Source of the DNA: Escherichia coli
GTDB lineage: Bacteria; Pseudomonadota; Gammaproteobacteria; Enterobacterales; Enterobacteriaceae
Assembly: GCF_003334385.1 (NCBI RefSeq)
Contig: NZ_QOWN01000098.1
Direction: 5' to 3' (one strand)
DNA: 2,727 bases
A program made the translations under genes and the position numbers. The notes beneath the pieces were generated by a model. That model saw only the letters and a list, made by a program, of their open reading frames with translations, searched no databases and was not told the origin of the DNA. The stretch's first letter is position 1; every line of letters starts with the position of its first letter. Below, piece by piece: positions 309-872 of this stretch.

Positions 309-872
309 GTGCTGACAACGCAAAAACGAAAATTTGCGCTGGCGCTCATGTCCGGGAAAAACAAAACAGCGTCAGCCATTGCCGCCGGTTATTCGGCGAA
401 GACCGCCAGGGTTAAAGGCTCGCAGCTGGCAAAAGATCCGGAGGTGCTTGCGTTTATAGCCCGTAAACAGTGCGAGACGGTGGAGGTGGATGAGGTTCCT
501 GTTTACCGGCAGAAAAAATCAGAGCAGGAGGATAAACCCCGTCGCCGTGAGGCGGCTGCAATACCACAGCCGGACGAAAACAATCCGGAGATGCCACCGC
601 CCGTGGTGATATCTCCTGGTATTGAGTATATGGAGGACGGTCTTCCCGATCCGGTGAAAGCGATGGGGCGTCTTCTGGTGGAGAACATTAATACCGACCC
701 CAGGCTGGCGCTGGATGCGGCTTATAAGCTGGCGCAGTTCACGCACCACAAAAAAGGGGATGCCGGTAAAAAATCGGCAAAAGGTGATGCCGCGAAAAAA
801 GCGGCTAACCGTTTTGCGGTGCCACCACCACCCCGCCTGGTGGTGAATAATGATAACGAGGGGAACGGATGA
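309..872 (+). CDS. terS: Terminase small subunit (P27 / Terminase_2-like), 187 aa, GTG start
   Basis: The N-terminus LTTQKRKFALALMSGKNKTASAIAAGYSAKTARVKGSQLAKDPEVLAFI matches the pattern I recall for P27-family small terminases (LT.KQ..F...Y...GN.T.AA..AGYS...A...G..LL..P.V...I), a DNA-binding helix-turn-helix region. It lies directly upstream of, and overlaps by 4 nt, a large terminase gene. The C-terminal third is Lys/Pro-rich and low in complexity. Confidence 0.85.
   Translation: MLTTQKRKFALALMSGKNKTASAIAAGYSAKTARVKGSQLAKDPEVLAFIARKQCETVEVDEVPVYRQKKSEQEDKPRRREAAAIPQPDENNPEMPPPVVISPGIEYMEDGLPDPVKAMGRLLVENINTDPRLALDAAYKLAQFTHHKKGDAGKKSAKGDAAKKAANRFAVPPPPRLVVNNDNEGNG
859..863 (+). promoter_or_regulatory. 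Shine-Dalgarno (GAGGGG) for terL, embedded in the 3' end of terS
   Basis: GAGGGG at 859-863 lies 5 nt upstream of the ATG at 869; the terS stop TGA (870-872) overlaps the terL ATG (869-871) as ATGA. Confidence 0.55.

Follow-up and report, generated by a model that had tools for sequence, protein, structure and literature searches.

A four-base ATGA overlap between terS and terL in an Escherichia coli prophage: a secure TerL start and plausible termination–reinitiation coupling

The small and large terminase subunit genes in the 2,727-nucleotide stretch of Escherichia coli DNA studied here (contig NZ_QOWN01000098.1 of assembly GCF_003334385.1, hereafter the window) are joined by the commonest of bacterial layouts, a 4-base ATGA overlap of stop and start codons. 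The explanation that best accommodates our data is that of an ordinary terS/terL pair, in which TerL is made from ATG 869 by termination–reinitiation with some independent initiation, and we consider it likely to be correct. The start codon of TerL is secure on the evidence of reading frame and conservation, and across the TerL sequences compared it is the proximity of stop and start, not the ATGA itself, that is the conserved feature. The arrangement as such is already known, being a textbook layout in a very common E. coli prophage. Its consequence beyond annotation quality is small; the confirmed TerL start codon will be useful for expressing the protein or for building reporter constructs.

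The overlapping genes and the TerL start codon

Read directly from the window, positions 863–876 are ...AACGGATGATACC..., with ACGGATGATACC at 865–876 and ATGA at 869–872 of the + strand. The terS stop codon TGA (870–872) shares bases with the terL start codon ATG (869–871), which gives a spacing of −4 between two genes on the + strand. The coordinates of the ATGA, the terS stop and the terL start in the earlier note proved exact, both on direct reading and against the list of open reading frames, in which terS occupies 309..872 (187 aa, GTG start at 309) and terL 869..2530 (553 aa, TAA stop at 2528–2530). The same 4-nt overlap has been annotated on near-identical DNA by PGAP (E. coli 2012C-4227) and by RefSeq (phage 2851). 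Among unidirectional gene pairs of E. coli, −4 is the commonest spacing, and 24% of such pairs are spaced between −8 and +6 (PMC10666635). The first 50 kb of phage 2851 contain 62 pairs of adjacent CDSs on the same strand, of which 12 (19%) have a spacing of exactly −4 and three a spacing of −1. The terS–terL overlap does not rise above chance or this base rate and is unremarkable.

The identities that the earlier note had assigned to the two genes hold by their Pfam, PHROG and structural matches. The terS product matched Pfam Terminase_2 (PF03592; E=2.4e-8) over residues 2–57, the N-terminal HTH region, and PHROG 641 'terminase small subunit' (E=9e-69) over its full length (residues 1–183). 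It is thereby a small terminase subunit with an N-terminal HTH DNA-binding region, and relatives carry the identical annotation. Compared with solved structures, TerS gave only weak matches to SF6/SPP1-type HTH domains (E 0.18–0.76), on which we place no weight. Translation of terS is served by a strong Shine–Dalgarno (SD) sequence, GGAGGAGG at 299–306 (−12.1 kcal/mol), which is overlapped by GACCCGGGAGG at 293–303, a near-repeat of the GACCCGGGGGGGG that follows the HNH endonuclease gene.

The terL product contains the TerL_ATPase domain PF03354 on residues 65–224 and the TerL_nuclease domain PF20441 on residues 276–535, and it matches PHROG 7622 and PHROG 9. Its closest solved relative is HK97 TerL (6z6d; phmmer E=1.4e-9), and it is 43–59% identical to the TerL proteins of Pseudomonas, Burkholderia, Moraxella and Microcystis phages. 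Invariant residues in alignment A1 comprise the P-loop-like K90-K91-N92-x-K94-x-T96, the pair D186-E187, and G354-x-D356-G-G-G. With both domains and the conserved motif residues present, the protein is an HK97-like TerL.

The earlier note had argued from the overlap that the 869 start is genuine. The start is indeed genuine, and the proof comes from the bracket formed by an upstream stop codon and a conserved motif rather than from the overlap. Upstream, the terL frame is closed by a TAA at 854..856 (+), four codons before the ATG. Downstream, the limit is set by the codons of TerL residues 5–12 (WSTACPDW; 881..904, +), the first conserved block of the family, in which A8, P10, D11 and W12 never vary among the phage homologs of alignment A1; the block as a whole is conserved in homologs down to 44% identity. 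ATG 869 is the sole start codon between these two limits. The next in-frame start, GTG 1001, lies 44 codons further on and has no SD; we rejected it as the TerL start since it would delete the conserved residues 5–44. The TAA, the conserved W5–W12 block and the lack of any other start before GTG 1001 together make the 869 start secure. Consistent with this, position 1 of PHROG profiles 7622 and 11206 aligns to TerL residue 1, and in most of 86 homologous loci the bracket is equally tight, with an in-frame stop only a few codons ahead of the start and a single start codon placed 1–4 codons before the motif.

Stop–start proximity across the TerL family

For a survey of terS–terL junctions we used 80 loci from viral contigs, found with the TerL alignment, and six annotated records; a scan of viral contigs with two peptide patterns, including [WF][TSD][TF]A[CL]PDW, retrieved 589 relatives. 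At each locus we identified the TerL start codon and the point where the upstream ORF ends, accepting only ORFs that extend at most 10 nt beyond that start. This yielded 83 junctions, comprising the window and 82 loci, with TerL proteins 44–99% identical that formed 46 clusters at 90% identity. In 42 of the 46 clusters the distance from stop to start was between −4 and +5 nt. Counted by cluster, the spacing was −4 in three, −1 in 13, 0 in nine, +1 in three, +3 in ten, +4 in two, +5 in two, and some other value in four.

All 11 sampled close relatives, with TerL at least 90% identical, share the ATGA, although their flanking 20 nt have undergone substitutions. We did not accept this as evidence for coupling, as all four bases already belong to a start or a stop codon and their conservation among close relatives is therefore uninformative. 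Beyond these relatives, an ATGA-type junction was seen only in L015/L016, L026 (as GTGA) and L062, so that, of the 83 junctions, those of this type belong either to the close E. coli clade or to a few isolated loci. The check for conservation in homologs that the earlier note had proposed thus finds the ATGA kept among close relatives but not family-wide, where proximity is conserved instead. Likewise, the description of such overlaps as common in terminase pairs is true in a loose sense, the ATGA being a minority form (three of 46 clusters) and spacings of −1, 0 and +3 being commoner. By parsimony on a neighbour-joining tree, the junction type has changed at least 29 times, and the survey shows ATGA interconverting freely with TGATG, TAAATG and TAAnnnATG junctions. 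What selection appears to maintain is a stop–start distance of −4 to +5 nt rather than the ATGA overlap.

Several individual junctions deserve mention. In L015/L016 (1999–2006) the junction reads ACATGATGCC, and either ATG could be the start, at −4 (ATGA) or at −1 (TGATG); the sister loci L014/L068 have ACATAATGCC, which allows −1 only. The L015/L016 junction resembles a transitional form in the evolution of one overlap type into the other. Two apparent exceptions in spacing (L022 and L032) have an ORF of 57–59 aa inserted between terS and terL, and this ORF abuts terL at +3 or −1 (L022 1812–1991, L032 1822–1995). Moraxella phage Mcat6 (L005 998–1532) carries two extra small ORFs between terS and terL.

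Initiation of terL and its coupling to terS

The last codons of terS (Lys/Arg/Gly/Glu) supply a purine-rich, SD-like sequence for terL, GAGGGG at 858..863 (+), which covers codons Glu184-Gly185 and ends 5 nt before the ATG. Its predicted duplex with the anti-SD (−8.0 kcal/mol) is of moderate strength; among the window's coding 20-mers it ranks in the top 9%, and it is weaker than those of terS (−12.1 kcal/mol) and the capsid gene (−10.3 kcal/mol). Close relatives have GAGGGC or GAGGAA instead. Across the family, SD strength upstream of terL is modestly enriched (median −4.9 versus −3.2 kcal/mol; Mann-Whitney p=1e-4), and several members are essentially devoid of a terL SD (+0.4, +0.3 and −0.2 kcal/mol, for example) while their stop still lies no more than 5 nt from the start.

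A consensus scan of the + strand from 309 to 2530 found no promoter-like or terminator-like site; terS and terL would therefore be co-transcribed and, as far as such a scan can tell, lie on one transcript. On terminating terS at TGA 870–872, a ribosome would find itself already at the terL start, and some of these ribosomes would then reinitiate there, aided by the GAGGGG within the last terS codons. Some free ribosomes would probably also initiate terL independently, given that its initiation region is predicted to be unstructured and its SD is moderate. The two subunits would be expected to be made in concert and in rough proportion, TerL not exceeding TerS in abundance, and without a fixed or 1:1 ratio.

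Termination–reinitiation coupling of this kind is plausible in the light of both the family and the literature. Stop and start stay close in 42 of 46 clusters, often where the SD is weak or absent, which fits a dependence on reinitiation; in members that lack an SD and yet keep the proximity, reinitiation by the terminating ribosome would be the simplest way to start TerL. That reinitiation occurs in the window's own pair, and how far TerL depends on it, we infer. In E. coli, pairs spaced at −4 or −1 are usually coupled by termination–reinitiation, and subunits of heteromeric complexes are over-represented among their products (PMC6728339; PMC10666635), and coupling drops steeply with the distance from stop to start (PMC10666635). 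Of five E. coli −4 overlap pairs tested, three were strictly coupled, one was coupled to about 60% and one was uncoupled, and coupling efficiencies range from 0 to about 100% (PMC6728339). The mechanism of coupling itself is still debated (PMC12548453). Our literature search found no direct measurement of terminase coupling for this TerL family, the idea being mentioned in genome-description papers.

The most serious alternative is that the overlap is incidental compaction: free ribosomes would use terL's own SD independently of terS, and the ATGA would have no regulatory role. Tight stop–start spacing could be the product of selection for a compact genome in a phage limited in size, and a large part of TerL synthesis could come from de novo initiation at an SD that, at −8.0 kcal/mol, ranks in the top 9% of coding 20-mers. 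The region around the start is also open. In a partition-function calculation, positions −15 to +12 around 869 had a mean unpaired probability of 0.57, against 0.38 for the coding background, and the terL initiation region was more open than 97% of sampled coding positions. Moreover, an overlap shared by 19% of same-strand pairs of phage 2851 has the look of a default layout, and the uncoupled pair among the E. coli ATGA pairs tested, bioBF, provides a precedent (PMC6728339). Against this, the distance between stop and terL start stays at 5 nt or less even in family members whose SD is very weak or missing, and at least 29 rearrangements of the junction have left the proximity intact. Four of the five tested E. 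coli ATGA pairs were coupled, and a ribosome standing on TGA 870–872 physically covers the terL start, so that the two events would not be fully independent. On balance we regard incidental compaction as unlikely, although it retains more weight than any other rival, and we prefer termination–reinitiation with some independent initiation.

In the earlier note, the overlap had also been taken to mean that both subunits are made at fixed stoichiometry. This over-reads the junction, as nothing in the sequence fixes a ratio. Coupling would make TerL synthesis proportional to that of TerS rather than set it at a defined ratio, the constant of proportionality being given by the efficiency of reinitiation plus independent initiation. 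In HK97, the relative that has been studied best, the nonameric small terminase and the pentameric large terminase differ in symmetry, and the interface between them is transient (PMC11331095). With nine subunits facing five in that system, a requirement for 1:1 synthesis is not to be assumed. The nonamer/pentamer architecture is carried over by analogy only, the TerS of the window belonging to another family (Terminase_2).

The 3′ end of terS has further features of its own. A conserved C-terminal tail (..NRFAVPPPPRLVV.., residues about 165–179, window 801..845, +) ends 8 codons before the stop. Its family motif, derived from 41 homologous TerS tails, is (K/R)F(A/G)-x(3-6)-PP(K/R)LV, extended as ...PP(K/R)LV(V/A)NN, and most of these 41 homologs retain it, including ones with a TerL identity as low as about 55%. 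We infer that this tail may bind TerL. Within it, residues 172–175 form a PPPP run (CCACCACCACCC, 822–833), whose codons make up one arm of a predicted hairpin just upstream of the terL SD. More distant TerS homologs have PP only, the PPPP run being found in the E. coli clade; the window's TerS also has a PPP (EMPPPVV) at about 594–602. Polyproline runs normally need EF-P for efficient translation.

These features allow a stronger version of coupling, in which ribosomes fresh from terS would carry out most or all translation of the large subunit throughout the TerL family. In addition, the PPPP run, which depends on EF-P and lies 12 codons before the terS stop, could limit how many ribosomes pass on into terL in the E. 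coli clade. This reading takes its cue from the many family members that lack a usable SD and yet have the stop within 5 nt of the start; we consider it a long shot. If it were true, TerL output would be capped at a fraction of TerS, matching an excess of the small subunit such as 9:5, and the 3′ end of terS would hold a three-way overlapping code for a TerL-binding tail, an SD and a ribosome gate.

Coupling by RNA unfolding, in which the terL ribosome-binding site would stay masked until ribosomes translating the end of terS expose it, is very improbable. The hairpin of 7–8 bp formed by CCACCACC/GGUGGUGG at about 823–845, just upstream of the SD, speaks for it by position, but it includes neither the terL SD nor the AUG, and in the centroid structure 846–884 is unpaired. 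Neither the minimum-free-energy nor the centroid fold of 810–930 contained a structure masking the site, and the folding energy equalled that of shuffled sequences (z=−0.02). Together with the accessibility of positions −15 to +12, which lies above background, these folds show a downstream site that is not sequestered, and we rejected this type of coupling. Its exclusion leaves termination–reinitiation, plus a de novo share of a size that cannot be estimated from sequence.

Finally, it is scarcely conceivable that TerL starts elsewhere, or as a TerS–TerL frameshift fusion, and that the overlap is an annotation artefact: we found no point in favour of this, the in-frame starts are limited to ATG 869 and the GTG 1001 that loses conserved residues, and a fusion is ruled out by the TAA at 854–856, which would require the −1 shift to fall within CGAGGGGAACGG, where no slippery X_XXY_YYZ site can be read.

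Prophage setting and comparison with known systems

The window is the packaging module, within the late operon, of a Stx-type lambdoid prophage similar to phage 2851 (Pankowvirus-like). Over its whole length it is 96–98.5% identical in nucleotide sequence to phage 2851 and to E. coli prophages, and near-identical prophages are present in 1255 of 5426 complete E. coli genomes, about a fifth, many of them Stx-converting. The gene order in relatives is HNH endonuclease, terS, terL, a 645-aa protease–capsid fusion and portal.

The flanks of the gene pair contain several further elements. The 3′ end of the HNH endonuclease gene, with its stop TAA at 17–19, is followed by GACCCGGGGGGGG, which includes a run of eight G at 28–35; homopolymer G runs are prone to slippage. 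In the HNH–terS intergenic region, at 109–238, there are five exact copies of GTTAACAT on both strands (113–120, 119–126, 187–194, 210–217 and 227–234), where 0.07 would be expected by chance. A perfect 22-bp palindrome, GCCAGTTAACA|TGTTAACTGGC, occupies 109–130, and the GTTAACAT region forms inverted pairs at 185–196/225–236 and 206–217/227–238. The GTTAACAT copies are probably candidate recognition sites of the small terminase or elements of a cos region.

Terminator-like hairpins with a T-run lie on the + strand at 134–154, inside the same intergenic region, and at 2555–2580, between the terL stop (2530) and the SD and GTG of the next gene (2584–2595). The number of such hairpins is not above that expected from shuffled sequence, and transcription would pass through them in a late operon under Q antitermination. 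The gene that follows terL starts at GTG 2593 (+, window 2593–2727) behind an AGGAGG SD (−10.3 kcal/mol). In relatives (L001 6593–8530, L002 6598–8535) it encodes 645 aa annotated both as major capsid protein and as head maturation protease, and on these annotations it looks like a protease–capsid fusion. The portal gene follows the capsid gene in these relatives, the usual order being terL-portal-protease-capsid.

Of the known systems, the nearest is Enterobacteria phage 2851 (Pankowvirus pv2851, NC_049943), together with the Stx1a/Stx2c prophages of O157 and non-O157 STEC, which have the same gene order and the same 4-nt overlap. Only point differences set the window apart from phage 2851 and its related prophages, such as the GAGGGG that stands here in place of their GAGGGC or GAGGAA. 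In some phage 2851-type relatives terL has been inactivated by an internal stop, as in E. coli 2012C-4227 (L001 4868–6529), or by an insertion of IS629, as in Stx2 phages 1717 and Stx2a_F349; the terL of the window is intact. With the terminase of HK97, which packages at cos in an HNH-dependent manner, the window shares the TerL fold family (PF03354/PF20441) and an HNH gene next to the terminase genes. It differs from HK97 in its TerS, which is of the Terminase_2 type (SPP1/SF6-like HTH) and not of the HK97 TerS family.

As regards translation, the closest parallel is with the coupled pairs of the ATGA/TGATG class described by Huber et al. in 2019 (PMC6728339) and 2023 (PMC10666635). The terS–terL pair is like these in strand and transcript, in its 4-nt ATGA, in having an SD within the last codons of the upstream gene, and in encoding subunits of a heteromeric complex. 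It departs from them in that its ribosome-binding site is predicted to be open and its SD is moderate, and it may on these grounds resemble the partially coupled menDH rather than the strictly coupled hyfHI.
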